A stretch of 64,000 bases of DNA from Clostridia bacterium (GCA_018432615.1 JAHDSQ010000006.1:18432-82431), one strand, 5' to 3'; shown: positions 44,908-61,096, counted from the stretch's first letter. Numbers and translations: made by a program. The notes: generated by a model from the sequence alone, not told the origin.

Positions 44908-45539
44908 TGGTAACCGCGGATAAGATAGCATCATTAAAATTTGACGAAAAAGGTTTGATACCGGCCGTTGTCCAGGATGTGAAAAGCGGTACGGTTTTGA
45001 TGGTTGCCTATATGAACAGGGAGGCCTTGGAAAAAACCTTGGCGGACGGCAGGACCTGGTTTTTCAGCCGCAGTAGGCAATCTCTGTGGGCCAAGGGTGA
45101 GACTTCAGGTCATATCCAAAAGGTAGTGGGGATTTATTACGACTGTGATGCCGATACCTTGCTGGTTCAGGTGCACCAAACCGGAGTAGCTTGTCACGAA
45201 GGGAACTTCTCTTGCTTTTCCAGGTCATTGATGGAAAACAAGGAGGCCGTATCTTTTGATTGGGCGGTGCTTTCCTACCTGGAGACTCTCATTAAGGAGA
45301 GAAAGGAAAAGCTGCCCGAAGGGTCTTATACTACCTATTTATTCGAAAAAGGCATCGACAAGATCTTAAAGAAGGTGGGCGAAGAAGCCACGGAGGTCGT
45401 TATTGCGGCCAAGGGTGGAAAAGAAGAGGAAATCGTTTACGAAACAGCGGACTTATTCTATCATATACTGGTGCTTTTACGAGACTGTGAGATTGACTTA
45501 AAGGATATCTGGCAGGAACTTTTTAAGAGGCATAAATAA
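44904..45539 (+). CDS. hisI: Bifunctional phosphoribosyl-AMP cyclohydrolase / phosphoribosyl-ATP pyrophosphatase
   Basis: The HisI part is GLIPAVVQD ... [19 protein letters not shown] ... DCDADTLL. The HisE part is [28 protein letters not shown]. Confidence 0.94.
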
Positions 45540-45671
45540 GAACCCCACCCAACAACGTAATCAAAGATTACTGTTGGGTCCCGGGAACCTTGTTGTATTC
45601 ACAATAAGAACCCCACCCAACAAAGCAATCAAAGATTGCTGTTGGGTCCCGGGAACCTTGTTGTATCCACA
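45536..45671 (+). repeat. Two tandem 68-nt direct repeats, each containing a bulged 14-bp hairpin (his operon 3' UTR)
   Basis: Unit 1 is 45536-45603 and unit 2 is 45604-45671. They differ at 4 of 68 positions. The hairpin is ACCCAACA-(AC or AA bulge)-GTAATC-AAA-GATTAC-TGTTGGGT. Two of the four differences are a compensatory pair: T45558/A45570 versus C45626/G45638. Confidence 0.9.
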
Positions 45672-45673
45672 AT

Positions 45674-45708
45674 AAAAAACGGCATGGCGTAAGCTGTGCC
45701 GTTTTTTG
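45674..45708. terminator. Bidirectional terminator (A6 - stem - T6)
   Basis: AAAAAA-CGGCA ... TGCCG-TTTTTT. It could serve the his operon on + and the convergent ATPase gene on -. Confidence 0.7.
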
Positions 45709-45723
45709 TGCATCCAATAACAG

Positions 45724-45746
45724 CGGCGGCTTTTTTTGAGCCGCCG
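45724..45746. terminator. Second hairpin downstream of the minus-strand ATPase gene
   Basis: A perfect 8-bp GC stem (CGGCGGCT / AGCCGCCG) with a T-rich loop lies 36 nt beyond the 45782 stop. Confidence 0.45.
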
Positions 45747-45781
45747 TTTGGATTCATTAATTCTTTCGGTTGTGCCTGCAT

Positions 45782-47230
45782 TCATTCAATACCTTTGTAT
45801 CCGTTCTTTTCTGCATGGCCAAGCAAATACAGAAAGGCAAAAGCCGGAATACGAATGAGTTCATTGCCATCAGCAGTATTGTGGAGACCATAGTCATTTG
45901 CATTTTTGGTTATAATGATTGCGGCGGATGCTTCTTTGCAGAGTCGGCAGATAGCGTCATTATTGGTAATGGGTGCACCTTCTCGGTATTTCACTTCAAT
46001 CAGGATGTTTTTGTTATTGGAATATTCAACGACTATATCAACTTCTTTGTCCTTGCGTCCGCCTCGATAGTAACCGATTGAGGTTGTATTTTGATAATAG
46101 AATGCCGCTACATGCTTGTAAACAGAGGTTTCCACTACTTTGCCCATTTCGACCGGATCGGTGAGAAGGGAATCATCCATTAGAACTGCGTTGCGAAGGG
46201 CCGCATCCGCGATGTAGATTTTAGGACTGGCTTTCAGTATCTTTTTTCCTGCCATATTAATTGGCCAACTTTGATAAATCAGATTGGCACTTTCTAAGTA
46301 GCGAATATAGTTTTCTACAGTTGGGCGGGAGACACCCTGCAATTCCTTAGCAATAGCTTCAATGGATACAATAGAAGACGATACATTGCAAAGGTAAAGG
46401 AAGATGCGCTCCAACTCTGTGGAATTTCGGATAGGATAAAGAGAGGGCAGATCTCTTTTTAAGACCTTGTCAACCACATCTTCACGCAATATCTGTTGGG
46501 ACATTAAATCGTTGTCTGCCAGTGCCAGTTCCGGGAAGCCGCCAATCTGTAAATAACGCGCAAAGTGATTATAAACCTTTGATAGTTGCAGCATGATCTG
46601 CGTTCGCTCCTGCTGGGACTTATGGAGCAGGGAGGTGACATTGACGGAAGGAGTCAAATCAGGCTTCTCAATATTCATCAGCTCACAGTATTCATAGAAG
46701 GACATGGTGGGAACCTGGATGACTGACCACCTACCGGCTCCGCTTTCATTTGTTCCTTTCATTAAAACGGGGCTGGCAGAGCCGGTGGCCACTACTTTTG
46801 TGTCCGGCTGCATATCATAAATGGTTTTTAGCCACTTATCCCAATCCTGGGCATACTGAACTTCATCAAAAAAGTAGTAGCAGTCCTGTTCGGCATAAAT
46901 ATTCTCGTGATAACAATCTAATATCTCGTTGATAGCGCTCAGCTTCAGCATGGGATGATCCATCGAAATATAGATAATTTTCGTTGGAGTAATTACACTT
47001 TTTAGCAGGCTTTCAATCATCTGATATTGTATGGTTGTCTTTCCGACGCGACGTGTTCCCGTCAGAACAACAGAACGGCGAATTTTAGTCCGCTTTAAAC
47101 ACTTCATTGCTTCATAAAAAGCAAATCTTTTATATGTTTTAGCAAACTTTGGATTGACTATGCCCGTTTTCCACCACGGATTATAAGCTGTCAAAACCTT
47201 CAGGATACCTTCCTTTGTTGTAACTGGCAT
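45782..47230 (-). CDS. AAA+ ATPase (AAA_14 / DUF4143-type) with C-terminal D...ExK nuclease-like motif
   Basis: Walker A is LTGTRRVGKTT. Walker B is YYFFDEVQ. A central wHTH-like region reads VSRPTVENYIRYLESANLI. The C-terminus is KEVDIVVEYSNNKNILIEVKY. The ATG at 47230 (AGGTGG SD) is preferred over the track start at 47263. Confidence 0.8.
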   Translation of the reverse strand: MPVTTKEGILKVLTAYNPWWKTGIVNPKFAKTYKRFAFYEAMKCLKRTKIRRSVVLTGTRRVGKTTIQYQMIESLLKSVITPTKIIYISMDHPMLKLSAINEILDCYHENIYAEQDCYYFFDEVQYAQDWDKWLKTIYDMQPDTKVVATGSASPVLMKGTNESGAGRWSVIQVPTMSFYEYCELMNIEKPDLTPSVNVTSLLHKSQQERTQIMLQLSKVYNHFARYLQIGGFPELALADNDLMSQQILREDVVDKVLKRDLPSLYPIRNSTELERIFLYLCNVSSSIVSIEAIAKELQGVSRPTVENYIRYLESANLIYQSWPINMAGKKILKASPKIYIADAALRNAVLMDDSLLTDPVEMGKVVETSVYKHVAAFYYQNTTSIGYYRGGRKDKEVDIVVEYSNNKNILIEVKYREGAPITNNDAICRLCKEASAAIIITKNANDYGLHNTADGNELIRIPAFAFLYLLGHAEKNGYKGIE

Positions 47231-47285
47231 AAAACCACCTGCTTTCAAGCATAAGAGTAGCACTTACCTTCATTATTGTCAACTA

Positions 47286-47309
47286 TTATTATAAATATAT
47301 TTATAATAA
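47286..47309. promoter_or_regulatory. Perfect 24-bp A/T palindrome upstream of the 45782-47230 ATPase gene
   Basis: TTATTATAAATATATTTATAATAA equals its own reverse complement. It lies 56-79 nt upstream of the start codon. Confidence 0.5.
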
Positions 47310-47437
47310 ATGGTGGAAGTTATTGATTTTAATATGACACTGTCTATTCTTTCATTGAGCTTATTTTTTCCTATTGGAAACAATACTATGATTGCTTTGA
47401 TTCTTAAAATAAGGATGAAAATGCTGATGCGATAAAG

Positions 47438-48838
47438 TCATCGGAGTAGATTTATCTCGTCCAAAGACACAAGTTTTATATCCCGTTCCTTAGCAATATT
47501 TTGTACATCGTGGGTAAATCCGCTTTTTGAAAACAGATAATAGTATAAGGTTGCCGTCTTTTTCTTAGGATTGAATTTTGCCAGTGCAGAATTTAATTCC
47601 GAAAGATTAAAGGCGGCGTTTTTGAATTTACATTCGCCGAGGATGAACTTATTTTTATCCCGGTCTGTGGCCATGATGTCGATTTCTGTGTCTTTATTCC
47701 ACCAACGTCCAATTAATGTAAAGCGGAAGGGTAAGGCATTTCGGCGGTTTAACCTTCGCAAGTATTCTCTGCACACATCTTCGTAGATGCGCGAGGTATA
47801 TTGCTCCAGCATCGGTTGAATGGCATGATTGTAGACTCCGTCTGCGTCACCGGCCTCCAATTCAGAGATATTTGGGAAGACAAAAGCATACCAGAAGCGG
47901 AAGAAGTTATCGGTAATCTGATATAGGCCATGCTGGATATTTGCCTGCTTCTTTATGCCGTCGGATACAGGGAATTCTCTGCGGATCAAACCTAATTCTA
48001 CGAGGTTTTTAAGATAAACCGTCAGCTTGCTTTTACCAATTTGTGTCTTTTGAAAAATATAGTTGAGTTTTGTATTGCCGAGTGCAACCGCCTCGATGAT
48101 AGTGTTATAAACCGTAGTCTCCCGCAGCTCCTGTCGCATAAGAAATTCCACTTCGCTGTAAAGGATACTCCCCCGCTGCAGAATACTCTGTTTGATATTT
48201 TCCTCAAGGCTCTTATCCTGGCAGAACTGCTTTAGGTAGTGGGGAATACCGCCCAGCACAGCATAAGCGGCAATCTTATCAAGATTAGAGTAATCCGGGA
48301 AAAATTCAATAGCTTCGTAAAAGTCCATTTCATTCATCTTGAGAATGCCGGTTGCCCTTCCATAAAGGGGGTTCTTCTCAGCCAAAACCTCCTTTTCAAT
48401 AAATGACATGGCGCTGCCGCAAAGAATGATCATGATATTCTCGTTTTTTAGGTGACTGTCCCAGAGATTTTGCAGGAGTGATGGAATAGAAGGATTGTTT
48501 TTGACCATATAGGGGAACTCGTCTATAACTAGTAGTTTCTTACCGCTTCCGGCAAGTTCCGAAATGCTGGACAGCGCCTGCTCCCAATCTGAAAAAGCGT
48601 TGATATACTTTGCGGCAGGGATATCTTTTGAGAGCATGCGTCTACTGAATGATTTCAGTTGCTGCTCATCGGTACTTTCAGTACAAGAGTAAAAAATATG
48701 CTCCTTGTCTGCGCAGAATTTTCGTAGAGTTTCGGTCTTGCCTATGCGTCGTCGTCCATAAAGAACTATAAGCTGCCCGTTCGGTGTATTATATTTATTC
48801 TCTAAAAAAGCAAGCTCATTCTTTCTTCCGATGAACAT
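47438..48838 (-). CDS. AAA+ ATPase (archaeal-ATPase / DUF234-type) with C-terminal D...ExK nuclease-like motif
   Basis: It starts MFIGRKNELAFLE. Walker A is LYGRRRIGKTE. Walker B is LLVIDEFPY. The C-terminus is TEIDIMATDRDKNKFILGECKFK. The ATG at 48838 (AGGGGG SD) is preferred over the track start at 48922. Confidence 0.8.
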   Translation of the reverse strand: MFIGRKNELAFLENKYNTPNGQLIVLYGRRRIGKTETLRKFCADKEHIFYSCTESTDEQQLKSFSRRMLSKDIPAAKYINAFSDWEQALSSISELAGSGKKLLVIDEFPYMVKNNPSIPSLLQNLWDSHLKNENIMIILCGSAMSFIEKEVLAEKNPLYGRATGILKMNEMDFYEAIEFFPDYSNLDKIAAYAVLGGIPHYLKQFCQDKSLEENIKQSILQRGSILYSEVEFLMRQELRETTVYNTIIEAVALGNTKLNYIFQKTQIGKSKLTVYLKNLVELGLIRREFPVSDGIKKQANIQHGLYQITDNFFRFWYAFVFPNISELEAGDADGVYNHAIQPMLEQYTSRIYEDVCREYLRRLNRRNALPFRFTLIGRWWNKDTEIDIMATDRDKNKFILGECKFKNAAFNLSELNSALAKFNPKKKTATLYYYLFSKSGFTHDVQNIAKERDIKLVSLDEINLLR

Positions 48839-48944
48839 TTCAAAAACCCCCTGAGATATCAAATCGTAATTATTATAATCATGACTTGATATTATTATAC
48901 ATACCATCTTGGAAAATTGCAACTGAATATACTAACATCATTTC

Positions 48945-48999
48945 TTGACCTAATGAGATTATTCGTCTATAATAAAATATGATTTTAGAATAGACGAAT
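48945..48999 (+). promoter_or_regulatory. Promoter (TTGACC-17 nt-TATAAT) overlapped by a 9-bp inverted repeat
   Basis: TTGACC at 48945-48950 and TATAAT at 48968-48973. ATTCGTCTA (48961-48969) and TAGACGAAT (48991-48999) bracket the -10 box and the likely transcription start. Confidence 0.55.
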
Positions 49000-49045
49000 A
49001 GTATGAAGGGTTTTTGTATAGAATAACAAAGAGGCGAGGTGAGAG

Positions 49046-50302
49046 TTGGTGTATATTAAAAGAGCGGTTGAGGAAACCGTCCAAAAGGTTGCCGCAACCT
49101 TTCCGGTTATGCTCGTGACCGGTCCGCGACAAGTCGGCAAGTCGACAATGCTTGAAAAATTGGCAGAACCGGATCGTAAGATTGTGACATTGGATGACCC
49201 GGATATTCGCTATTTGGCGAAGAGTGATCCAGCCTTATTCATGCAAAGATACACGCCGCCTCTTATAATTGATGAGATCCAATATGCCCCTGAGCTTTTA
49301 CCCTATATCAAGATGGCCGTGGATAAGTCGAAGAAAAACGGTGAATACTGGCTTACGGGTTCACAATCTTTTGTCATGATGAGGGATATTAGTGAAACAT
49401 TAGCCGGACGTATCGGTATCATCAATCTGTTGGGCTTATCGACCAGCGAAATCAACTCAGTACCCTCTGAAGTATTTACGACTGATCCGGATAGGCTAAT
49501 GAAACGAACAGATGTGGTCAAAAGGCTTGACTTGAATGAGCTGTATTTTCGCATATTCAAAGGATCCATGCCGAAGCTGTACGCAGACGAAAATATAGAT
49601 ATCGAGACGTATTACCGCTCCTATATCGATACTTACCTTAAACGGGATATCAAAGATTTAACTCAGGTTGCGGATGAGATGACCTTTTATAACTTCATGA
49701 CTGTTGTTGCTGCAAGAACGGCAAAGCCTGTTATTTATGAGGAAATCGCAAGTGAAAGCGGAATATCTTCTCCAACCGCAAAAAAGTGGCTCTCTATTTT
49801 ACTATCGTCAAATATTATCGCGATCGTTCAGCCGTATTATAACAATGTTTTGAAGCGTGTTACGAAGATGCCGCTGCTTCACTTCCTTGATACAGGACTT
49901 TGCGCCCACCTTTTGAAATGGGGCAATCCTGAAGCGCTGGAAAGGGGTGCTATGTCAGGGGCATTTTTTGAGAGTTATGTTTTCTCGGAGATTTACAAAA
50001 GCTATTTGAACGTGGGGAAAGAACCGCCGCTGTACTATTACCGCGACAAGGATAAGAAAGAGATTGACCTTCTGATTTACGAGAACGGAACTCTTTATCC
50101 CATTGAAATCAAAAAGTCCGCTTCACCGGGCAAGGATGCTGTCAAGCACTTCAAAGTACTTAATCCGGTTACGGAGCCGGAGAAGTTTGGGGAAATTACC
50201 CGGGTGAAAATTAAAATAGGGAAGGGTGCAGTTATTTGTATGGTCAAGGATTTACTTCCTCTGGATGCGAAAAACTGGTACGTCCCTGCCTGGTTGATTT
50301 AA
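49046..50302 (+). CDS. AAA+ ATPase (AAA_14 / DUF4143-type) with C-terminal D...ExK nuclease-like motif
   Basis: Walker A is VTGPRQVGKST. Walker B is PLIIDEIQ. A wHTH-like region reads ISSPTAKKWLSILLSSNII. The C-terminus is KKEIDLLIYENGTLYPIEIKKS. It is paralogous to the 45782-47230 product. Confidence 0.8.
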   Translation: MVYIKRAVEETVQKVAATFPVMLVTGPRQVGKSTMLEKLAEPDRKIVTLDDPDIRYLAKSDPALFMQRYTPPLIIDEIQYAPELLPYIKMAVDKSKKNGEYWLTGSQSFVMMRDISETLAGRIGIINLLGLSTSEINSVPSEVFTTDPDRLMKRTDVVKRLDLNELYFRIFKGSMPKLYADENIDIETYYRSYIDTYLKRDIKDLTQVADEMTFYNFMTVVAARTAKPVIYEEIASESGISSPTAKKWLSILLSSNIIAIVQPYYNNVLKRVTKMPLLHFLDTGLCAHLLKWGNPEALERGAMSGAFFESYVFSEIYKSYLNVGKEPPLYYYRDKDKKEIDLLIYENGTLYPIEIKKSASPGKDAVKHFKVLNPVTEPEKFGEITRVKIKIGKGAVICMVKDLLPLDAKNWYVPAWLI

Positions 50303-50794
50303 ATCCGATAGTGCTTTTTCAATAATAAAGGCAATGGCAAATACCACAAAGATATTCATCGCAAATCTTGTCAAGGTAAACTGCCAGCCTAAGGATGATA
50401 TCTCAAAAAGTAATAACGGTATGCGAATGCTTGCGCTTGAACACAAAAAAAGCAGTACATTTGATATTTTGCTCCCTTTTTTGAGCAATACTCCGGCCAC
50501 AGGCAGCAGTGCATATAGCGGAACCGCGGTAATCAAGCCCAACAGCAATGAAATAAGGATTCCTTTTGCGCCGGATTTTTCACCCATTACCCTTATCATC
50601 ATCTCCCGTTCTACCCAGACATCCATGAGTCCTATACAAATGAAAATAGGTGTGAGCATAAAAAGGAAATTCAAAAAATTTTTACCCGTAAAGGTCAAAG
50701 CCTTTATTGCGACGGGTGGGTAGAGGATTAATACTATAAGATTGGCCGATAAAACAGTAGCAAGCAGTAAGTATCTTTTGAGTTGTTTTTTCAT
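50252..50794 (-). CDS. Permease-family (DUF318/ArsP-like) membrane protein, second subunit of a two-gene permease
   Basis: 180 aa with 4-5 TM segments. It overlaps the upstream partner by 4 nt (ATGA). Its last 17 codons are antisense to the end of the 49046-50302 gene. Confidence 0.7.
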   Translation of the reverse strand: MKKQLKRYLLLATVLSANLIVLILYPPVAIKALTFTGKNFLNFLFMLTPIFICIGLMDVWVEREMMIRVMGEKSGAKGILISLLLGLITAVPLYALLPVAGVLLKKGSKISNVLLFLCSSASIRIPLLLFEISSLGWQFTLTRFAMNIFVVFAIAFIIEKALSDLNQPGRDVPVFRIQRK

Positions 50795-51279
50795 GTAAAC
50801 ATAACTCCCATGAAATATGATGTAATAAAGGCAAACAGAAAAAACAGCAGATTGCGAAGAACTGCTACCTTTTTCCCCAAGTATTGGATTTCAAGCGGCA
50901 AGGTCACAAAGCCCACTGTTGTCAACGCGGCGATAAAAACTGCCATTTGAGCAATTCCCGCGCCGTTTTTCAGAAGTTCGGATACCAGCGGGAAAGCAAT
51001 CAAAACCGGAATAAGCGTAACCGCGCCAACCAATGCGGAGATGAGCATCCCTAAAAAACCGGATTGTGTACCGAGGATATTTTGTATCGTTTCCGGCTGC
51101 AACACCGCAAGTATAAGCCCGACGAGCAACAGGACAGATATAAACTGAGGCAGGACGGCAGTAAACATATTCCACGCTCTTTTTAATGATAAGAGCGTTT
51201 TCTTTTGGTCCATTAAAAAGGACAGTACTAACAAAACAGTTGCCACTACATAAAGGATAATTGTAAAGAGTGTATTCAT
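50791..51279 (-). CDS. Permease-family (DUF318/ArsP-like) membrane protein, first subunit
   Basis: 162 aa with 4-5 TM segments. It resembles the split two-component membrane permease pairs of Firmicutes. Confidence 0.7.
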   Translation of the reverse strand: MNTLFTIILYVVATVLLVLSFLMDQKKTLLSLKRAWNMFTAVLPQFISVLLLVGLILAVLQPETIQNILGTQSGFLGMLISALVGAVTLIPVLIAFPLVSELLKNGAGIAQMAVFIAALTTVGFVTLPLEIQYLGKKVAVLRNLLFFLFAFITSYFMGVMFT

Positions 51280-51360
51280 GTGTCATCACCTTGTATTGTT
51301 AAATCATATTGTTAAAACTTGTGCTTTTGTGTGCATTATATTACAATTCGAGCAGGAGGT

Positions 51361-51378
51361 ATGTTGCCTACGCAACAT
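51361..51378. promoter_or_regulatory. Perfect 7-4-7 palindrome between the SD and start codon of the Crp/Fnr gene
   Basis: ATGTTGC-CTAC-GCAACAT. AGGAGG at 51354-51359 lies 1 nt upstream, and the ATG of the regulator at 51387 lies 8 nt downstream. Confidence 0.6.
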
Positions 51379-51386
51379 AATATATT

Positions 51387-52046
51387 ATGAAAAACTACCT
51401 TGAAGATTTAGCACAGACAGCTTTATTTGCGGGTATCGAACAAGAGAATATTGAAAAATTACTTGGCTGTATCCAGGCAAAAGTAGTGGAGTACAAGAAA
51501 GATGAATTGATTATAGAGGAAGGCAGCAAGGTATATGATTTTGGTATCATGCTGTCGGGGCATGGCCGTGCTTTCAAGATTGATACGATGGGTAGAATAA
51601 TTATTATTACGCTTTTGAAAAAAGGCAGTGAAATCGGCGTTATTTTGGCTGCCGGCTCCGATCATAAAAGTCCGGTATCGGTTCAGGCCCAAGAGGATTT
51701 ATCTGTACTTTCGGTCCCGTTTGACGGGCTCATTATGCGCTGTAAAAACAACTGTCCGCAGCATGATCGGCTTTTGAGAAACTATATCAATATCGTTGCC
51801 GAAAAGGGGATGGTACTGCATGAGCGGATCGACTGCCTGCTGAAACCTACGGTACGGGAAAAAATCATGACGTATCTGGTACGGGTATCCCGTGAGCAGG
51901 GCTGCCGGACCTTTACCATTCCTTTTGACAGATATGCCATGTCCGAATATCTCAATATTGAGCGAAGTGCTCTTTCAAGAGAGCTGTCCAAGATGAAACG
52001 TGACGGGCTAATCGATTTCCATAAAAGCGAGTTTAAGTTGTTATAA
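51387..52046 (+). CDS. Crp/Fnr-family transcriptional regulator
   Basis: 219 aa. It has an N-terminal cNMP-binding-like beta-roll (LFAGIEQENIEKLL...) and a C-terminal HTH (RYAMSEYLNIERSALSRELSKMKRDGLI). Confidence 0.85.
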   Translation: MKNYLEDLAQTALFAGIEQENIEKLLGCIQAKVVEYKKDELIIEEGSKVYDFGIMLSGHGRAFKIDTMGRIIIITLLKKGSEIGVILAAGSDHKSPVSVQAQEDLSVLSVPFDGLIMRCKNNCPQHDRLLRNYINIVAEKGMVLHERIDCLLKPTVREKIMTYLVRVSREQGCRTFTIPFDRYAMSEYLNIERSALSRELSKMKRDGLIDFHKSEFKLL

Positions 52047-52105
52047 AAAATAACGACTGAAGTGTAAAACTCAGGATAGCCAATATTCAGATTGTACTTC
52101 CTTGT

Positions 52106-52138
52106 GCACCGTCACGAAAAGAGAGGGTGCTTTTTTTT
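52106..52138 (+). terminator. Weak-stem terminator with T8 run
   Basis: GCACC ... GGTGC (5 bp, 15-nt loop) is followed by TTTTTTTT. Confidence 0.45.
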
Positions 52139-52228
52139 ATGCCTAAAAAATATCTCGAAAAAATATGCAAACTTTTAAAAAAAAAGAAGGGATTTTTTAA
52201 ATGGCATGGAATATTAGTGTAATAAAAC

Positions 52229-52304
52229 AGAGACAGCGTCTCTAAAATTGCAAGGAGTAATGTCGCCATATAATAGAGACGCTGTCTCCAAAATTACAAG
52301 GAGG
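52229..52304 (+). repeat. Duplicated 46-nt module (palindromic hairpin + AAAATTRCAAGGAG) in the glutamate mutase leader
   Basis: Copy 1 is AGAGAC-AGC-GTCTCT-AAAATTGCAAGGAG (52229-52257). Copy 2 is AGAGAC-GCT-GTCTCC-AAAATTACAAGGAGG (52275-52304). The 15-mers are near reverse complements of each other, so they could form one 14-bp long-range helix. Confidence 0.8.
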
Positions 52305-52313
52305 GTTGTATCC

Positions 52314-52754
52314 ATGAGCAATACCATAGTCTTGGGGGTAATCGGGTCCGATTGTCACGCCGTTGGTAACAAAATATTGGACCACGCTTTTTCGTCGGTG
52401 GGATTTAAGGTGATCAATATCGGTGTATTAAGCTCACAGGAGGATTTTATCAATGCAGCCGTTGAAACCGATGCTGATGCAATCCTCGTTTCGTCCCTGT
52501 ACGGCCATGGAGAAATTGACTGCCGGGGATTCAGGGAAAAGTGTGAAGAGGAAGGCTTAAGCGAGATTCTTCTTTATGTAGGGGGGAACCTTGTAGTGGG
52601 CAAGCAGGAATGGAAGACGGTGGAGAACCTATATAAAAAGATGGGCTTCAACCGGGTTTATCCTCCGGGAACCTCACCTGCTGCTGCGATTACGGATTTG
52701 GCGCAGGATCTAAAAATCGATCTTAGTAAGCTTGGCAAAGTGAAGGTGAGCTAA
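52314..52754 (+). CDS. glmS: Glutamate mutase (methylaspartate mutase) small B12-binding subunit S
   Basis: It contains [22 protein letters not shown] (the DxHxxG B12-binding motif) ... SSLYGHGE ... [12 protein letters not shown]. The ATG at 52314 (AAGGAGGG SD) is preferred over the track start at 52248. Confidence 0.93.
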
Positions 52755-52755
52755 A

Positions 52756-54147
52756 ATGGAGGCTGTTTTACTGGTTGATTTTGGCAGCACTTATACTAAG
52801 CTAACGGTTGTGGACGTAAAAAATGAAGAGATTTTAGCCACTGCAAAGTCGCCTTCCACGGTAGAGACAGACATAATGATAGGGTTGCAAAAGGCCTATT
52901 CCTCCCTAAAGGAAAGGCTGAGGGGTATACCTGTGGAGTTTACCGAAAAATACGCCTGCAGCAGTGCTGCGGGGGGGCTGAAAATCGTGGCGCTGGGGCT
53001 GGTGCCGGAATTGACGGTGGAAGCGGCAGCAAGGGCAGCCCTGGGAGCAGGGGCCCGTATTGTAGGTACGTATAATCATGAGATCGGTATGTATGAGGTT
53101 GAAGAAATCATTGCAAAAAAACCCGACATCATCTTGTTGGCCGGAGGAACCGACGGAGGCAATAAAAGCTGCATCCTACATAATGCGAAAATGCTTGCGG
53201 AATACCTCAGTGATATTTCGGTGATTGCCGCCGGAAACAGTAAGGCCAGAGAAGAATTAGAAAAGCTTTTTTCCGATCATAAGATGTGTTACCGCTTTAC
53301 CGAAAATGTGATGCCGCGTCTTAATATCTTGAACGTTGAGCCGGTCAGACAAACGATTAGGAAGCTTTTCATTGAGAGAATTGTTTTGGCCAGGGGCTTA
53401 AAGCGTGCCGAAAAATACGTCGGCAAGATATTGATGCCAACTCCTGCCGCTGTTATGCAGGCCGCCGCAATATTGGCCGACGGGACGGCAGAGGAAGAGG
53501 GGTATGGAGAGCTGATGGTCGTCGACATTGGCGGGGCTACCACCGATGTACATTCGATTGCCAGCGGCGAACCGTTGGAGGCGGGTATCAGCTGGTACGG
53601 CTTACCTGAACCCTATGCCAAACGAACCGTTGAGGGTGATTTGGGTATGAGAGTAAGCGCTTATTCTTTATGGCAGACGGCCGGTTATCAGCGAATACGA
53701 AAATACTATACAGGAAGTAATAGTGATATCGAACAAAAATGTTTATTGTTGTCTGAACAGATTGACAGGATCCCTGTCAACGATGACGATTTCGAGTTTG
53801 ATGCAGCACTGGGGGCTGTTGCTGCACAAATAGCTGTGGAACGCCATGCCGGAATGCTTGAAAGGCACTATACACCTACCGGACTGGTTTATGCCCTTCA
53901 GGGAAAAGACCTTAGAGGGGTTTCTTGTCTTATTGGTACTGGGGGTGTTTTAGTTAAAGGGCGTGACCCTCAAAGAATTTTACAGGCCACGTTGGAAGGC
54001 GGTTTTGGTGAGGGACGCTTGATACCGCAAAAACCGCAATTGATGCTCGATAGTTCATATATCTTATCGGCCATGGGTCTTTTATCCAATGCCTATCCGG
54101 TGCAGGCGTTACGGATAATGAAAAAGTATCTCAAAAGAATAGTGTGA
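52756..54147 (+). CDS. glmL: Glutamate mutase accessory/reactivating protein GlmL (MutL)
   Basis: 463 aa. It has an ASKHA-type N-terminus (LLVDFGSTYTKLTVVD) and sits between the S and E subunits as in Clostridium tetanomorphum/cochlearium. Confidence 0.85.
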   Translation: MEAVLLVDFGSTYTKLTVVDVKNEEILATAKSPSTVETDIMIGLQKAYSSLKERLRGIPVEFTEKYACSSAAGGLKIVALGLVPELTVEAAARAALGAGARIVGTYNHEIGMYEVEEIIAKKPDIILLAGGTDGGNKSCILHNAKMLAEYLSDISVIAAGNSKAREELEKLFSDHKMCYRFTENVMPRLNILNVEPVRQTIRKLFIERIVLARGLKRAEKYVGKILMPTPAAVMQAAAILADGTAEEEGYGELMVVDIGGATTDVHSIASGEPLEAGISWYGLPEPYAKRTVEGDLGMRVSAYSLWQTAGYQRIRKYYTGSNSDIEQKCLLLSEQIDRIPVNDDDFEFDAALGAVAAQIAVERHAGMLERHYTPTGLVYALQGKDLRGVSCLIGTGGVLVKGRDPQRILQATLEGGFGEGRLIPQKPQLMLDSSYILSAMGLLSNAYPVQALRIMKKYLKRIV

Positions 54148-54153
54148 GGTAAT

Positions 54154-55611
54154 GTGATGATGTTAAAGAATAAAAAGTGGAGTAAAGAAGAGTTCTTCCG
54201 AGTGAGGGAAGATGTCTTGCGGCAGTGGGAGACCGGTCGTGAGATCGATTGGGATGAGGCCGCCGCTTATCTGAAGAATGTACCGGAGGGTCAAAATTTT
54301 TGTGTAAAACTTGCCGCAGCAAAGACCGAGGGACGAACCTTAGTTCAACCCCGGGCAGGTGTTGCTCTGCTTGAAGAGCATATTGAATTGCTTAAGTATT
54401 TACAAGACGAGGGAGGAGCGGATTTGCTACCTTCCACTATAGACAGCTATACCCGACAGAATCGTTATCATGAGTGCCAGGTGGGCATAGAGGAAAGTAT
54501 AAAGGCCGGACATTCGATGTTAAACGGTTTTCCCGCCGTGAATTATGGGGTGAAGGGCTGCAGGAAGGTCTTGGAGGCTTTGCACTTGCCCTTGCAGGCA
54601 CGGCATGGAACGCCCGATGCCCGGCTTTTGACGGAAATCGTCTTTGCGTCGGGTTGGACGTCTAATGAGGGCGGAGGCATTTCATACAACATTCCTTATG
54701 CCAAAAGTGTCAGCCTGGAAAAATCTATTTATGACTGGCAGTATTGTGACAGGCTGGTGGGGCATTATGAGGAAATGGGCATACATATCAACAGGGAACC
54801 CTTCGGGCCTTTGACGGGGACTTTGGTAGTTCCCTGCATTTCTAATGCCGTGGCCATCATTGAGGGCTTGTTAGCAGCGGAACAGGGTGTCAAAAACATC
54901 ACCCTGGGTTACGGTCAGTGCGGAAACCTTGTGCAGGATGTAGCTGCGATGAGAGCGCTGGAGGAACTAGCGGGGGAATACTTTGCTTCCGGCGGTTATG
55001 AGATTGAGTTAAGTACCGTCTTTCACCAGTGGATGGGGGGCTTCCCGGAGGACGAAGCAAAAGCCTTTGCCGTTATTGCCTGGGGCACGGTTGCAGCGGG
55101 ATATGCTAAGGCCACTAAGGTCATTGTTAAGACGCCTCATGAGGCTTATGGGATTCCGACAAAGGAAGCCAATGCTCAGGGTCTTAAAGATAGCAAACAA
55201 ATCCTCAATCTGCTTTGCGATCAGCAGAGTCTTGCCACAAAAGAAGTTGAGACGGAAAAAGAACATATCAAAAACCAAACCCGTTGTATTATCAATAAAG
55301 TTCTTGAACTGGGGGAAGGCGATCTGGCTATAGGTGTTGTCAGGGCTTTTGCCGCCGGTGTGCTGGATATCCCCTTTGCCCCAAGCCAGTTTAATCTAGG
55401 AAAGGTCTTACCGGTCCGGGATAATCTCGGGGCCGTGAGGATTTTGGAATACGGCAATCTTCCCGGTACAAAAGAAGCAAGGGAATACGAAAACAGTTTG
55501 TTGCAGGAACGAGCTTGCTATGAAAAAAGACCCTTGTCCTTTGACATGGTTGTTGACGATATTTATGCGGTGTCCAAGGGAACTTTAATAGGCAGGCCGG
55601 GGAGGAGATAA
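54154..55611 (+). CDS. glmE: Glutamate mutase large subunit E
   Basis: 485 aa, a TIM-barrel epsilon subunit ([10 protein letters not shown] ... [12 protein letters not shown] ...). It is colinear with GlmE. Confidence 0.92.
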
Positions 55612-55615
55612 AGGG

Positions 55616-56860
55616 ATGAAGATTGTAGATGTTGTGTGTTCTGAGGGTGTGACGGGATTTTTCTTTGATGATCAGCGTGCTATTAAAAAGGGAGCCGTTC
55701 ATGACGGCTTTGCATATATTGGAGAACCGGTAACAGAAGGCTTTAAGGAAATCAGACAGGCCGGAGAATCCATTTCTGTGATGCTTTTACTGGAAGACGG
55801 TCAGGTGGCTTACGGTGATTGCGCGGCGGTACAATATTCAGGAGCGGGAGGAAGGGATTCGCTTTTTTTGGCACAGGAGTTTATTCCCTTGCTTGAAAAA
55901 AGAATAAAACCTCTGCTTCTCGGAAAGGAATTGACCGGGTTCAAAGAAATGGCAGAATGGCTGGACAGATATGAACTCGACGGCAAAAGACTGCATACAG
56001 CCCTCCGTTACGGTCTGACACAGGCTTTGCTTGATGGGGCGGCCAAGGTCAAGAAAAAAACCATGGCGGAGGTCATTCAAGAGGAGTACGGTATTGAGTC
56101 ATCAATGAGAAGGATACCTGTTTTTACACAGTCCGGTGATGATCGGCATGGTAATGTGGATAAAATGATAATTAAGAAAGCGGATGTGCTTCCCCATGGG
56201 TTGATTAATAATATTGACGAAAAGCTGGGCAGGCAGGGCGAGATTTTAAAAGAGTATGTCAAGTGGTTGAAAAACAGGATCTTGAAATTTCGTATCGACG
56301 AGGGTTATCGCCCGGTGCTGCACATCGATGTTTACGGGACGATAGGTTTGATCTTCGATAACGATCCGGAAAGAATAGCGAATTATCTTTGCGAACTGGA
56401 TAAAGTTGCCGCTCCGTTTTCTTTGAGGATTGAGGGGCCTGTAGATGTTGAAAACAGGGAGGGTCAAGTGCGGGCTCTCAAGGATCTACGAAATGTCATC
56501 AGGCAAAAGGGCGGCAAGGTGGAAATTGTTGCAGACGAATGGTGCAATACACTGGAGGATATTAGGCTGTTTGTTGATGAACAGGCTGCGGACATGGTCC
56601 AGATCAAGACACCCGATCTGGGCGGGGTCAACAACATCGTGGAAGCGATTCTTTATTGCAAAAATCAGGGCATCGGTGCGTACTGCGGCGGGACATGCAA
56701 TGAAACCGACAGATCAGCTCAGATTTGCACTAATATCGCCATAGCTTGTGGGGCCGATCAGTGTTTAGCCAAACCGGGAATGGGTGTCGATGAGGGCTTT
56801 ATGATCGTTAAGAATGAGATGAATAGGGTTTTGGCTCTGGTTGCCGCAAGAAAAAAATGA
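55616..56860 (+). CDS. mal: 3-methylaspartate ammonia-lyase (beta-methylaspartase)
   Basis: It is nearly colinear with the C. tetanomorphum enzyme as I recall it: MKIVDV.C..G.TGF.FDDQRAIKKGA ... CAAVQYSGAGGRD ... QIKTPDLGGVNNI ... AYCGGTCNET.RSA ... KPGMGVDEG.MIVKNEMNRVLALV. Confidence 0.95.
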   Translation: MKIVDVVCSEGVTGFFFDDQRAIKKGAVHDGFAYIGEPVTEGFKEIRQAGESISVMLLLEDGQVAYGDCAAVQYSGAGGRDSLFLAQEFIPLLEKRIKPLLLGKELTGFKEMAEWLDRYELDGKRLHTALRYGLTQALLDGAAKVKKKTMAEVIQEEYGIESSMRRIPVFTQSGDDRHGNVDKMIIKKADVLPHGLINNIDEKLGRQGEILKEYVKWLKNRILKFRIDEGYRPVLHIDVYGTIGLIFDNDPERIANYLCELDKVAAPFSLRIEGPVDVENREGQVRALKDLRNVIRQKGGKVEIVADEWCNTLEDIRLFVDEQAADMVQIKTPDLGGVNNIVEAILYCKNQGIGAYCGGTCNETDRSAQICTNIAIACGADQCLAKPGMGVDEGFMIVKNEMNRVLALVAARKK

Positions 56861-56879
56861 AATAGGCAGGTGAATACCG

Positions 56880-57149
56880 ATGAGGATCACTAAAAGCAGT
56901 GAAGCAGGCAAACAGGAAGCGAACGATATTTTTATTTGGCTTGAACCCAATGAAAAAGAAGAAATCGAGATAAAGCTGGAAAGCGTTGTCAAGCTTCAAT
57001 TCGGCAAGCAGATCGAGAAGGTAATCAGAGAGACCCTTGCCAAACTTGGTGTTACTAGTGCTTCGGTTACTGCCTGGGACGGCGGTGCCCTTGATTATGC
57101 CATCAGAGCCAGGGTTGAGACTGCCGTTAGGCGCGCGGGGGAGGTGTAG
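56880..57149 (+). CDS. citD: Citrate/citramalate lyase acyl carrier (gamma) subunit homologue, with Ala at the Ser14 position
   Basis: 89 aa. It contains EAGKQEANDIFIWLEP ... QFGKQIEKVIRETL ... DGGALDYAIRARVE. This aligns with E. coli CitD (VAGTLESGDVMIRIAP ... DKGALDCILRARLE). Confidence 0.85.
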   Translation: MRITKSSEAGKQEANDIFIWLEPNEKEEIEIKLESVVKLQFGKQIEKVIRETLAKLGVTSASVTAWDGGALDYAIRARVETAVRRAGEV

Positions 57150-57152
57150 GAT

Positions 57153-58031
57153 ATGAGTGATTTGAGAAGGAGTATGCTTTTTGTTCCGGGTTTTAGGCCG
57201 GGAATGTTGCAGAATTCCTCTATTTACGGAGCGGACAGCATCATTTTCGACCTAGAGGACAGCGTGGCCGTCACTGAGAAGGATGCGGCGAGGGTTTTGG
57301 TACGCAATATTTTGCAGGAGCTGGACTTTTCCGGGATAGAGATGGTGGTGAGGATAAATCCCGTTACAGACAGCCCGTTTGGAGAAGAGGACGTGGCGGA
57401 AATAGCCGGGGTCAGGCCGGATGCATTCATGCTGCCGAAGGCAGATGAGGAAGGCATTAGGGTATTGGCCGACATGCTGGATGAGATTGAGCAAAAAGAA
57501 GGGTTTGAGCAGGAATCGATAAAAATATTTGCCCTTGTTGAATCGACCTCTGCAGTGCTCAACCTCTGTTCCATAGCTAAGGCCTCGACAAGGCTGGCCG
57601 GGATTATGCTGGGGGCGGAAGATTTGACTGCGGAGCTGGGGATAAAAAGAACGCTGCAAGGAAACGAGCTTTTATACGCACGGAGTCATCTGGCTATGGT
57701 GTGCAAATCAGCAGGGATCGATGCCATCGACACCCCCTTCGGCGATGTAGAGGACCGGGAGGGCTTGGAGTATGATGCAAGTCAAGCCAAGTCTTTAGGG
57801 CTGACCGGCAAAGCTGCCATACATCCCCGGCAGGTGGGAACGATTAATCGACTCTTTTCTCCCTCCCCGGAGGAGGTCATCTATGCAGGAAAAGTCGTAG
57901 CGGCAGTCAGGGAAGCCGAGAAGGAAGGCAAAGGTGTATTGGCCTTAGACGGCAAGATGGTAGATGCTCCTGTGGCGGCAAGGGCCGAAAAAGTGTTGAA
58001 GCAGGCGAAACTGGCGGGAATAGAAGTTTAG
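57153..58031 (+). CDS. citE: Citryl/citramalyl-CoA lyase beta subunit (CitE family)
   Basis: It contains LRRSMLFVPG ... IIFDLEDSV ... ESTSAVLN ... GAEDL, the HpcH/CitE signature. Confidence 0.9.
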   Translation: MSDLRRSMLFVPGFRPGMLQNSSIYGADSIIFDLEDSVAVTEKDAARVLVRNILQELDFSGIEMVVRINPVTDSPFGEEDVAEIAGVRPDAFMLPKADEEGIRVLADMLDEIEQKEGFEQESIKIFALVESTSAVLNLCSIAKASTRLAGIMLGAEDLTAELGIKRTLQGNELLYARSHLAMVCKSAGIDAIDTPFGDVEDREGLEYDASQAKSLGLTGKAAIHPRQVGTINRLFSPSPEEVIYAGKVVAAVREAEKEGKGVLALDGKMVDAPVAARAEKVLKQAKLAGIEV

Positions 58032-58044
58032 GAGATGAGAGAGA

Positions 58045-59580
58045 ATGAGGAATGTTTTAGGCAGGGAATTGCCCGAACGCATTGCAGGATATGGCGAGGT
58101 GCGTCCGTTTGCGGGTGCTTTTGCCCACGCAGGTGAAATAAACCGGAAGGCGGTAAAAGTCAAAGGTGATTGGTCTTCACCAAACAAGGTTCTCAACAGT
58201 TTGGGAGAAGCTTTGGAGAAATGTGGTCTTAAAGACGGTATGACCGTTTCCTTCCATCATCATTTGAGGAACGGGGATTATGTTTTGAATATGGTTTTGG
58301 ATGAGATTGCAAGGCAGGGCATTAAGGATATTAAGGTCGCGGCTAGTTCGATTTTTCCCATTCATCAACCCTTGGTAAGGCACATGGAAAATGGTGTGGT
58401 GACAGGACTTTATGCGGGATATATCTCAGGACCCGTCGGAGAAGCGGTTTCCCAGGGTGTATTAAAAAATCCTGTTGTAATGCAAACCCACGGGGGGAGA
58501 GCCAGAGCGATAGAGTCGGGAGAACTGCATATTGACGTGGCCTTTATCGCCGCACCGACTTGCGATGAATACGGTAATATGAACGGACTGGAAGGACCCA
58601 GTGCGTGCGGTGTGTTGACGTATCCGGCTGCCGATGCGGAATACGCCGACAAGGTTATTGCCGTTACCGATAACCTTGTTTTGTATCCTGCTTGTCCTAT
58701 TGAAATCACCCAGGAGCAGGTTGACTATGTCGTGGAGGTGGACTCGATTGGTGACTCCGCAGGGATCGTTTCGGGAACGACGAGAATTACTAGCGATCCG
58801 GCGGGGTTGAAGATTGCCGAGTCGGCCGCACAGGTCATTAAGGCCTCTGGACTTTTAATGGACGGTTTTTCATTTCAGACCGGGGCTGGGGGAACTTCCC
58901 TGGCGGTTGCGGCTTACGTGAAGGAAATGATGAAGGAGAAGAACATTCAGGGTAGTTTCGCCGCAGGCGGGATTACGGAATATATGGTGGAAATGCTGGA
59001 GGAAGGCTTTTTCCGCACCTTGTTCGATGGTCAATGCTTTGACTTGAAGGCTGTTGAATCTCTGCGCAAGAACAAAAACCACCAGCGCATGAGCATGTCT
59101 ATGTACGGTAATCCCTGCAACAAGGGAGCAGTTGTTAATAAGCTTGATGTGATGATCTTGGGTGCAACAGAGGTCGATCTGGATTTTAACGTAAATGTAA
59201 CAACCAATTCCAATGGTCTTTTGATGGGCGGTTCAGGAGGTCACAGCGATACGGCGGCCGGAGCAACGCTGGCGGTTGTCGTTACAAAATTGATCAGAAA
59301 GAGATTCCCCATTGTTGTTGACAGCGTTACGACCGTAACCACGCCGGGTGAAACAGTGGATGTGCTGGTGACCGAAAGGGGTATTGCCGTTAATCCTTTA
59401 CGGCAGGATGTATTGGAAAAGGTGAAAAAAGCCGGTTTGCCTGTCAAGACCATCGAGGAGCTGAAAGAGATAGCCGAGAAGTTGACCGGGGTGCCTGAAA
59501 AGGTGGAGTTCAAAGACAAGGTTGTAGCGGTCATCGAATACCGGGACGGAACTGTGATCGACGTGGTTAGGCAGCTTTGA
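58045..59580 (+). CDS. citF: Citrate-lyase alpha subunit-type acyl-ACP/CoA transferase (CitF family)
   Basis: 511 aa and colinear with CitF (SFHHHLRNGD ... FQTGAGG ... GGSGGHSDTAAGA). Confidence 0.88.
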   Translation: MRNVLGRELPERIAGYGEVRPFAGAFAHAGEINRKAVKVKGDWSSPNKVLNSLGEALEKCGLKDGMTVSFHHHLRNGDYVLNMVLDEIARQGIKDIKVAASSIFPIHQPLVRHMENGVVTGLYAGYISGPVGEAVSQGVLKNPVVMQTHGGRARAIESGELHIDVAFIAAPTCDEYGNMNGLEGPSACGVLTYPAADAEYADKVIAVTDNLVLYPACPIEITQEQVDYVVEVDSIGDSAGIVSGTTRITSDPAGLKIAESAAQVIKASGLLMDGFSFQTGAGGTSLAVAAYVKEMMKEKNIQGSFAAGGITEYMVEMLEEGFFRTLFDGQCFDLKAVESLRKNKNHQRMSMSMYGNPCNKGAVVNKLDVMILGATEVDLDFNVNVTTNSNGLLMGGSGGHSDTAAGATLAVVVTKLIRKRFPIVVDSVTTVTTPGETVDVLVTERGIAVNPLRQDVLEKVKKAGLPVKTIEELKEIAEKLTGVPEKVEFKDKVVAVIEYRDGTVIDVVRQL

Positions 59581-59597
59581 ATGAGGTGGGATGAAGA

Positions 59598-60446
59598 GTG
59601 ATACGCGAAATTAAGGCAGAAAAAATCAAGGATACCGTAAAAAGACTTTTGCTGCAGGCAAATTATGAAATAGGGACGGATGTGTTAAGAGAGCTTGGGC
59701 TCAGTCTTAAAAGGGAGGAGTCGGCAACAGGAAAGTCTGTGCTGCAACAGATCATTGATAACCACCGGATAGCCCGGCAGGACAGGATAGCCATGTGCCA
59801 GGATACGGGGATGGTGGTCCTTTTTGTCAGTCTGGGGCAGGAGGCGATTATTACCGGGGGCGATTTCACCGAGGCCGTAAATCAGGGGGTGAAAGAGGCC
59901 TATACCGAAGGATACCTGCGGAAGTCGGTAGTCGAAGACCCTTTGTTCGGACGGAAGAATACCGGTGATAATACGCCGGCCGTTATCCATTTGGAGCTTG
60001 TACCCGGAGATAGGATAAAGATTCAGGTGATGGCGAAGGGGTTTGGCAGCGAAAACATGAGCCGAGGGAAGATGCTTTTGCCTTCTGCCGGTGTGCAAGG
60101 GGTGACGGACTTTGTTATAGAAACGGTTCAAAAAGCCGGTCCGAATCCTTGTCCTCCGCTCGTTATAGGGGTGGGTATCGGGGGAACGCTGGATATGGCG
60201 GCCCGGCTTGCGAAAATCTCCTTGTTGAGAGAAATCGGCTGTCCTAACGGTGATATACATTATGCCGCATTGGAGAAGGAATTGAAGGAGAGGGTAAATG
60301 AACTGGGAATAGGACCTGCTGGGCTGGGGGGAAGGATAACCGCTTTGGCGGTCAATGTTGAATACTATCCCACTCATATTGCCGGATTGCCTGTAGTCGT
60401 CAATATAAACTGTCATGCCGCAAGGCATGCCGCAGCGGAGATCTGA
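59598..60446 (+). CDS. Class I Fe-S hydro-lyase alpha subunit (fumarate/tartrate hydratase type); probable mesaconase
   Basis: GTG start. It contains CQDTGMVV ... GFGSENMS ... CPP..IGVGIGGT, the class I fumarase N-terminal domain pattern. It sits in the glutamate fermentation operon. Confidence 0.85.
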   Translation: MIREIKAEKIKDTVKRLLLQANYEIGTDVLRELGLSLKREESATGKSVLQQIIDNHRIARQDRIAMCQDTGMVVLFVSLGQEAIITGGDFTEAVNQGVKEAYTEGYLRKSVVEDPLFGRKNTGDNTPAVIHLELVPGDRIKIQVMAKGFGSENMSRGKMLLPSAGVQGVTDFVIETVQKAGPNPCPPLVIGVGIGGTLDMAARLAKISLLREIGCPNGDIHYAALEKELKERVNELGIGPAGLGGRITALAVNVEYYPTHIAGLPVVVNINCHAARHAAAEI

Positions 60447-60457
60447 GGAGGGAAAAG

Positions 60458-61024
60458 ATGGATAAGACCAAGAGGATCCAAACGCCTCTCACTGTTCAAC
60501 AAGCAGTAGGATTGAAGGTAGGGGATAATGTTCTTATCAGCGGAGTGATTTATACGGCCCGTGATGCTGCCCATAGAAGGCTGGCGGAATTGTTAAAGGA
60601 GGGGAAACCGCTTCCCATTGAGTTAGAGGATCAGGTCCTGTATTATGTGGGTCCGGCTCCGGCCCCTCCCGGACATGCTTGCGGAGCAGCCGGCCCCACG
60701 ACGAGTACGCGCATGGATATTTACACTCCGCCGCTGATCGAAAAAGGGCTGAGGGGAATGATCGGGAAAGGATTACGTTCCCAGGCTGTTATTGAAGCGA
60801 TGAAAAAGCACGGCGCCGTATATTTTGCCGCTACAGGCGGAGCGGCAGCCCTTATTTCTAAGAGTATAAAGAAGGTCGAGGTTGTTGCCTACGAGGACTT
60901 GGGAACAGAAGCAATTCACAGGATGTATGTTGAGGATTTTCCGTGTATTGTGGTAATAGATAGTTATGGCAATAATCTTTATGAGAGCGGGCCGCAGAGG
61001 TACAGAACTTGTAAAACCTTATAG
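60458..61024 (+). CDS. Class I Fe-S hydro-lyase beta subunit; probable mesaconase
   Basis: It contains GDNVLISGVIYTARDAAHRRL ... GPTTSTRMD ... GAVYFAATGGAAAL, the fumarase C-terminal domain. Confidence 0.85.
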   Translation: MDKTKRIQTPLTVQQAVGLKVGDNVLISGVIYTARDAAHRRLAELLKEGKPLPIELEDQVLYYVGPAPAPPGHACGAAGPTTSTRMDIYTPPLIEKGLRGMIGKGLRSQAVIEAMKKHGAVYFAATGGAAALISKSIKKVEVVAYEDLGTEAIHRMYVEDFPCIVVIDSYGNNLYESGPQRYRTCKTL

Positions 61025-61052
61025 TTATTGTGTATTCGATAGTGTTAAAAAA

Positions 61053-61080
61053 AGCCGCCTTGTCGGAAAGGCGGCTTTTG
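61053..61080 (+). terminator. Terminator 1 after the glutamate fermentation operon
   Basis: The stem AGCCGCCT / AGGCGGCT with an 8-nt loop is followed by TTTTG. Confidence 0.75.
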
Positions 61081-61096
61081 TGCTGCTAAAAAAAAG

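Follow-up and report, generated by a model that had tools for sequence, protein, structure and literature searches.

Three large genes, which we call g1, g2 and g3, lie between hisIE and a pair of permease genes in a 64,000-nt stretch of DNA from a Clostridia bacterium (GCA_018432615.1, JAHDSQ010000006.1:18432-82431); this whole stretch is referred to below as the window, and positions are counted from its first letter unless another locus is named. Their mixed orientation (-, -, +) and their place between the his operon and the permeases, as given in a preliminary description made from the sequence, were borne out by long open reading frames (ORFs) at 45782-47263 (-), 47438-48922 (-) and 49046-50302 (+); all three genes are intact. 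Start positions were set by gene calls on identical public contigs and by the lengths of homologues; for two of the three genes the true start lies slightly inside the ORF. With these starts g1 runs over 45782-47230 (-) and codes for 482 aa, g2 over 47438-48838 (-) for 466 aa and g3 over 49049-50302 (+) for 417 aa. All three products are predicted to combine an AAA+ ATPase with a winged helix and a C-terminal nuclease domain of the PD-(D/E)xK type, in which the predicted catalytic set is intact.

Families, motifs and predicted folds

The products of g1 and g3 are members of COG1373 and carry the Pfam domain AAA_14 followed by DUF4143; that of g2 is a member of COG1672 and carries ATPase_2 and DUF234. 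The matches are at E 1e-33 (116 bits) for AAA_14 and 3e-33 (115 bits) for DUF4143 in g1, 3e-27 (95.5 bits) and 5e-44 (150 bits) for the same two domains in g3, and 7e-28 (98.4 bits) for ATPase_2 and 5e-30 (104.5 bits) for DUF234 in g2. All of them exceed the Pfam gathering cut-offs (27 for AAA_14, 28.1 for DUF4143, 33.2 for ATPase_2, 22.5 for DUF234), and the family calls made earlier hold. Full-length matches to hidden Markov models (HMMs) of PADLOC assigned g1 (model PDLC04787, 7.8e-67) and g3 (PDLC04790, 7.4e-102) to PDC-S01 and g2 (PDLC04984, 3e-59) to PDC-S27. Weak matches to the CARF_PDDEXK and Csx1 nuclease models were seen as well; strong matches to validated defence systems were absent from the PADLOC scan of the three proteins.

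The preliminary description had called these families functionally uncharacterised, which is right as far as demonstrated activity is concerned; however, DUF234/COG1672 and DUF4143/COG1373 were both classed as PD-(D/E)xK families in 2012 (Steczkiewicz et al., PMC3424549), and PDC-S01 and PDC-S27 were listed in 2024 as phage defence candidates, embedded in BREX, DISARM and type I restriction-modification (RM) loci and explicitly untested. In a survey of 2026 PDC-S01 took fourth place by frequency among the defence systems of prokaryotes; both families were described there as fusions of an ATPase with a PD-(D/E)xK domain that still await validation. The genes g1 and g3 are like PDC-S01 in both Pfam domains, in the full-length HMM match and in being single-gene units, and g2 is like PDC-S27 in domains and full-length match; there is no structural difference in either case. 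Particular to this locus is that two divergent PDC-S01 genes, distant paralogues with just 25% identity, flank a third ATPase-nuclease gene, and that the latter, g2, is degraded in a sister species. The locus is an ordinary further instance of a known, unvalidated candidate class and no new kind of system.

The motifs quoted in the preliminary description were all found in the translations. Walker A reads GTRRVGKT in g1 (K64), GRRRIGKT in g2 (K34) and GPRQVGKS in g3 (K31), and Walker B has the form hhhhDE in all three (D106-E107 in g2, D75-E76 in g3). The C-terminal motifs are EVDIVV..IEVK in g1, EIDIM..GECK in g2 and EIDLLI..IEIK in g3; the predicted nuclease residues are E367, D398, E412 and K414 in g1, E353, D387, E402 and K404 in g2, and E308, D340, E353 and K355 in g3.

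Among 1.84 billion cluster representatives searched, 17,451 were related to g3. An alignment of the g3 family with 121 sequences (34-83% identical to g3, mostly 34-51%) has residues G25, G30, K31, D75, E76, E308, E338, D340 and E353 conserved at a level of at least 90%, and K355 is 86% conserved (123 cluster representatives); the Walker A and B motifs and the E...D...ExK set are 86-100% conserved across g3 relatives. The g1 protein aligns to the g3-family profile at E 2e-35, retaining E367, D398, E412 and K414. In 64 relatives of g2, E353 and D387 are conserved at a level of at least 90% and E402-C-K404 is invariant. Lack of conservation in the C-terminal motif would have spoken against the architecture proposed earlier; E, D and ExK are, in fact, conserved in the relatives of both g3 and g2.

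AlphaFold models had a predicted local distance difference test score (pLDDT) of 96 and a predicted template modelling score (pTM) of 0.94 for g3, and values of 88.9 and 0.86 for g2. Both combine an AAA+ core and a helical lid with a winged helix and, at the C-terminus, a domain of the form alpha-beta-beta-beta-alpha-beta. The elements of this domain (H, helix; E, strand) are H303-320, E328-333, E338-345, E348-354, H362-375 and E393-397 in the g3 model and H332-365, E375-380, E385-391, E397-404, H412-420 and E430-437 in the g2 model. The first helix carries the conserved E, strand 2 the D and strand 3 the ExK; the modelled layout of the residues is canonical for PD-(D/E)xK. With confident models and with catalytic residues conserved in homologues, the succession of ATPase, winged helix and nuclease domain given in the preliminary description found good support. 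The isolated C-terminal domains had Pfam matches that were all sub-threshold, mostly to nuclease families (RE_ScaI, PDDEXK_4, NucS_C, UPF0102 and REase-ARP); the two family profiles are collinear over 342 columns (E 1.2e-4). Solved structures of DUF4143 or DUF234 proteins were not found when the PDB was searched by sequence.

Foldseek comparison of the g2 and g3 models with the PDB returned the archaeal ATPases 2qen and 2fna, ORC/Cdc6, clamp loaders (RFC), RuvB, Apaf-1, Avs4 and Avs5, as well as the STAND regulator MalT (8bob). The best structural matches were PAB2304 (2qen) and SSO1545 (2fna), both of Pfam family ATPase_2, with E 3e-13 and 3e-12 for g2 and 1e-7 (2qen) for g3. These proteins share the AAA+ core, lid and winged helix, and g2 matches 2qen by sequence too (E 9e-6); however, with ~350 aa they are devoid of the C-terminal DUF234/PD-(D/E)xK domain. 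In ORC/Cdc6, Apaf-1, Avs4 and Avs5 the AAA+ fold is followed by a winged helix, as in g2 and g3, and in Avs proteins, too, an NTPase is joined to a nuclease effector. On the other hand, the products of g1-g3 have no C-terminal repeat sensor (TPR, WD40 or LRR) of the STAND/Avs kind, and their nuclease is C-terminal while that of Avs is N-terminal; a match to Pfam nSTAND3 was sub-threshold (E 0.004, 17.3 bits against a cut-off of 27.2). The g3 model alone matched the CARF-nucleases Can2 and Cdn1, at E ~1e-5 to 1e-4 and with low TM-scores. Can2/Card1 and Cdn1 (8q41, 8z4i, 9u49) have the same order as g3, an alpha/beta sensor-like domain and then PD-(D/E)xK; however, the N-terminus of g3 is a P-loop AAA+ domain, not a CARF sensor of cyclic oligoadenylate, the TM-scores are 0.17-0.20, and there is no CRISPR context.

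Promoters, dyads and repeats beside the genes

The dyads linked to the promoters are the new detail added by this analysis, the rest of the architecture having been published already. As noticed in the preliminary description, the intergenic DNA of the block is AT-richer (34-38% GC). An Rfam scan of 45300-51500 gave no match.

Upstream of g3 a near-consensus promoter, TTGACC-17-TATAAT (48945-48973, +), overlaps a dyad with 19-nt arms, TATTCGTCTATAATAAAAT atg ATTTTAGAATAGACGAATA (48960-49000, +), so that the -10 box is inside the left arm. The arrangement TTGACA-17-..CGnCTATAATAAA..TTTAnnATAGnCG was found upstream of g3 homologues in Desulfosporosinus and in most of the 73 metagenome loci compared (49-84% identity); altogether, the layout of promoter and dyad is present upstream of 41 distinct homologues, with the half-sites CGnCTA and TAGnCG invariant in the dyad of the family. 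In these 41 sequences the two arms can pair in 80.9% of cells, versus 72.7% in shuffled ones (none of the 500 shuffles reached the observed value), and sliding the partner arm drops the pairing to 36-45%. The covariation score is 0.277 versus 0.151; changes on both sides were seen in 12 of the 18 dyad pairs, one pair being split into T-A (18), A-T (11) and G-C (5). Wobble pairs, compared in order to tell an RNA hairpin from a DNA dyad, numbered 33 G-T versus 16 A-C, an asymmetry confounded by the ribosome-binding site located in the right arm.

An RNA hairpin is improbable given that the -10 box is part of the left arm. The simplest reading of these sequences is an operator for a dimeric DNA-binding protein, probably an autoregulatory one, and the winged helix of g3 itself is a candidate for binding the dyad. 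In six loci with g3 homologues the CGnCTA..TAGnCG dyad is present twice, over the promoter and again ~60 bp upstream of that, in the manner of tandem operators.

For the elements linked to the promoters of the g1 and g2 families the support is thinner. The g2 promoter, TTGCAA-17-TATAAT (48922-48894, -), is directly followed by a leader sequence of 39 nt, an imperfect palindrome or repeat, AATATCAAGTCATGATT..AATTACGATTTGATATC (48893-48855, -). In g2 homologues (52-82% identity) a motif of the form AATATCAAATCAYGATT comes after TATAAT; the group at 56-62% has a repeated AAATCACGATT, and the homologue at 82% (locus L084) retains the form seen in the window. A repeat element of the type AATATCAAATCA(C/T)GATT is conserved after TATAAT in relatives of g2. 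A divergent DUF234 clade with GSCK at the C-terminal motif, common in viral-labelled IMG/VR contigs, has a promoter-proximal inverted repeat of its own, ACTCGTAA..TTACGAGT.

In the promoter region of g1 (47254-47309, -) a -35 box TTGACA (47282-47277) and a -10-like TACTCT (~47259-47254) are preceded, just upstream of the -35 box, by a perfect 24-bp A/T palindrome (47286-47309, -). This order, A/T dyad before -35, is partly conserved in the g1 homologues of the sister species and of two other loci (L198, L199). On the 3' side of g1 there is a terminator-like hairpin at 45723-45746 (-).

Gene neighbourhood and history of the locus

The GC content of g1-g3 is 42.4-43.7% and their GC content at third codon positions (GC3) is 0.445-0.488; the other 48 genes of the window have 45.9% (SD 3.2) and 0.475 (SD 0.046). 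A composition deviating from the host was not seen: GC and GC3 of all three genes are host-like.

A sister species (GCA_018433675.1, locus L083) has ~92.7% nucleotide identity to the window and the same frame of genes: hisIE, g1, a middle segment, g3, permeases, crp and glmS. The orthologues of g1 and g3 each have 94% protein identity; synonymous divergence (dS) between the window and L083 is 0.15 for g1 and 0.25 for g3, with 0.15-0.48 for the backbone, and the ratio of non-synonymous to synonymous divergence (dN/dS) is 0.18 and 0.10, respectively. Both genes have descended vertically, under purifying selection. The middle segment has changed: g2 is reduced to 3' fragments, and between the g1 and g3 orthologues (L083 3840-9793) there is a 6-kb insertion encoding PadR, DUF2812, an ABC ATPase with an FtsX permease, TetR and Fic; the Fic protein (394 aa) matches the defence family SoFic with E 2e-33. 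With respect to presence or absence at the hisI/permease junction, g1 and g3 are present in both species and g2 is found only as a remnant in one of them. A conspecific strain (L082, sample SRR13787007), otherwise 99.5-99.7% identical, carries a 59-bp deletion of 47213-47271 which takes out the -10 box, ribosome-binding site and ATG of g1; a short direct repeat, TACCTTC, is present at its bounds.

The gap between hisIE and pcrA is 0.35, 0.75, 2.0 and 7.9 kb long in four family-level relatives (L001-L004) versus 15.8 kb in the window (45540-61310). Besides the three ATPase genes it contains here two ArsP-type permeases, a Crp/Fnr regulator and the complete methylaspartate operon of glutamate fermentation (glutamate mutase, methylaspartate ammonia-lyase, citramalate lyase and mesaconase). 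The junction looks like a lineage-variable slot. In one relative, a Peptococcia metagenome-assembled genome, the gap (L001 10757-18029) is occupied by ORFs of 860, 589 and 893 aa with essentially no Pfam or PADLOC matches; in another, a 334-aa DUF234/PDC-S27-like ORF without the N-terminal ATPase part, probably a truncated copy, follows pcrA-ligA (L004 17297-18301).

Neither an integrase nor a transposase nor a flanking repeat turned up in the region, in agreement with the preliminary description; the sole repeat is a tandem duplication at the left edge. It consists of two copies of a 68-nt unit (94% identity, 45535-45670), the duplication beginning within the final 5 nt of hisIE. Each copy contains a 13-bp bulged hairpin, CCCAACA..GTAATC aaa GATTAC TGTTGGG, kept by a compensatory change (T>C / A>G) between the copies. 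The 68-nt repeat has no Rfam match; it is absent from L083, where ~18 bp stand in place of 45540-45707, and two independent metagenome assemblies break there.

Few close genomes are available: look-ups of the exact hisIE and permease proteins returned the same two metagenome strains only, and among 185,579 species genomes, a collection that does not include the species of the window, the nearest hisIE is 77-80% identical. Homologues of g3 with 74-78% identity are present in Flexilinea, Smithella and Aminobacteriaceae; proteins so similar in other phyla, when the best hisIE has 80% identity, point to horizontal spread over longer time-scales. Relatives were found on 373 of 72,556 plasmids, whereas a relative of g3 is carried by only 8 of 50,697 phage records. 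No PHROGs family matches any of the three proteins, and a phage-gene origin of g1-g3 was rejected on the latter two observations.

The term island used in the preliminary description is partly justified, inasmuch as the region varies and, over long time-scales, the genes spread horizontally. A recent genomic island is not supported: composition is host-like, and g1 and g3 are syntenic with dS like that of the backbone; the locus is nonetheless variable. Synteny in the sister species together with host-like composition, the kind of finding that the preliminary description had named as speaking against its proposal, was observed for g1 and g3, and not for g2.

One could speculate that the genes are selfish cassettes, addiction-type or self-mobilising, whose nuclease and terminal palindrome aid their own maintenance or spread in the manner of a homing endonuclease or a hairpin-end transposon. 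Promoter, dyad and ORF do move as a unit between distant genomes, the arms of the dyad covary as though pairing matters, relatives occur on the plasmids counted above, and paralogues accumulate side by side. We find this explanation improbable nevertheless, as neither transposase or integrase nor a second terminal repeat is present and g3 and the permease gene convergent with it share their last 51 bp (50252-50302), so that no terminator or repeat is possible downstream of g3. Moreover, g1 and g3 are stably syntenic, additional copies of the g1/g3 type were not found within the window, and no mobility genes are among the 25 most frequent neighbour families listed for g3 homologues.

Do the three genes make up one system? 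The preliminary description treated them as a module, and a cooperative multi-subunit system, e.g. a hetero-oligomeric AAA+ ring with three nuclease subunits, would agree with their adjacency and common architecture. Among 148 nearest-neighbour ORFs of g3 homologues on metagenome contigs there is no conserved partner; a further PDC-S01 gene turns up most often (4 of the 148), which could be counted in favour of cooperation, and next come GNAT acetyltransferases, AriA/AbiLi-like ATPases, HicB, PIN, RelB and Fic, amid many ordinary genes. Close homologues also stand alone, that of g2 in L084 and those of g3 in locus L085 and on a Moraxella plasmid. Within the block the orientation is mixed and each gene has its own promoter-like site and terminator; g2 was lost in the sister species with g1 and g3 still intact, and g1 and g3 have an identity of just 25%. 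A three-gene operon or system was rejected on the differing orientations, the separate promoters and the independent loss of g2, and we consider a cooperative assembly of any such kind highly improbable. The cluster is best read as three independent single-gene cassettes gathered in a variable slot.

Possible functions of the proteins

On the strength of architecture and analogy we tentatively favour, as the most likely mechanism if not yet a probable one, an autoregulated, ATP-switched nuclease guided by its winged helix and acting on foreign DNA. In its favour we count the architecture, the conserved catalytic residues, the PADLOC labels, the independence of the three genes, the low dN/dS together with the turnover at the locus, and the elements conserved at the promoters. 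The winged helix would bind DNA; binding or hydrolysis of ATP in the AAA+ module would make the protein oligomerise or switch conformation, in the way of ORC/Cdc6, STAND/Avs or McrBC-type proteins; and the switch would license the nuclease to cut DNA, most plausibly that of an invading plasmid or phage. Expression would probably be held low through autorepression: each gene appears to come with its own strong promoter of the sigma-70 type and with a dyad or repeat that overlaps or flanks it, and these elements would travel with the gene between genomes. Such promoter and dyad or repeat elements fit a product that is harmful when over-made. In McrBC, an NTP-driven AAA+ oligomer licenses a PD-(D/E)xK nuclease on DNA, the same logic as proposed here; McrB and McrC are separate subunits, though, and McrB is a GTPase of another AAA+ clade. 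We found no McrBC-type sequence or PADLOC match to the three proteins.

Several observations weigh against a nuclease of this kind. In a cold-seep study, with E. coli B as host, four candidates protected against T4, T5 or T7; one PDC-S01 and one PDC-S27 representative were expressed, and neither was among the protectors. No activity or phenotype has been demonstrated for any member of either family. The divergent DUF234 clade mentioned above, 35% identical to g2, has GSCK in place of GECK. Mutual information between winged-helix residues and the variable dyad base identified no residue that tracks the base; the highest-scoring columns belong to the linker that varies most (residues 130-182), and none of them gives a clean rule. 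Defence or toxin-antitoxin genes are a small minority among the neighbours of g3 homologues. Finally, the comparison with the sister species suggests vertical descent for g1 and g3, and their GC3 is host-like. A role in defence, suggested in the preliminary description, agrees with the PADLOC labels PDC-S01 and PDC-S27 and is unproven; as for an enrichment of defence genes around homologues, a few were indeed seen (PDC-S01, AriA/AbiLi-like, HicB, PIN, RelB and Fic), though they make up only a small part of the 148 neighbours.

Some of the same observations could be explained if the proteins were cellular and non-immune, i.e. ATP-dependent transcription regulators or DNA-maintenance factors with the winged helix on specific operators and the PD-(D/E)xK domain serving repair, recombination or binding only. 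The synteny, vertical descent, purifying selection and host-like composition of g1 and g3 would be expected then, as would the conserved operator-like dyad over the g3 promoter, the fold matches to MalT (8bob) and to ORC/Cdc6 initiators, the absence of tested PDC-S01 and PDC-S27 representatives from the reported protectors, and the mostly ordinary metabolic or signalling genes around homologues. Conservation of E, D and ExK at ~86-95%, however, argues for an active nuclease over a binding module; the distribution is patchy, with near-identical proteins in unrelated phyla; the genes are readily lost (the g2 remnant, the deletion of the g1 start); several divergent paralogues can sit side by side; and the families were first picked up inside BREX, DISARM and RM loci. 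A cellular role of this kind is, in our view, on the unlikely side.

The regulated nuclease acting on foreign DNA may also be put in a more specific form, which we think rather unlikely: each PDC-S01 or PDC-S27 gene would be a self-contained, autorepressed ATPase-nuclease cassette with its own winged helix on the promoter dyad, and either the loss of repression would free a toxic nuclease or the nuclease would recognise dyads as hairpins or cruciforms.

Few uncharacterised families of bacteria and archaea are as abundant as COG1373 (PDC-S01) and COG1672 (PDC-S27). The locus described here is a compact natural comparison for them, with two divergent PDC-S01 genes kept in both sister species, a PDC-S27 gene that only one of them retains, the other having the 6-kb insert with its SoFic-like gene, and a strain-level knock-out of g1. 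The promoter and dyad of the g3 family provide a concrete, testable handle on the control of these genes; and, if true, the autorepressed cassette would be the first regulatory and target-recognition logic for the PDC-S01 family.

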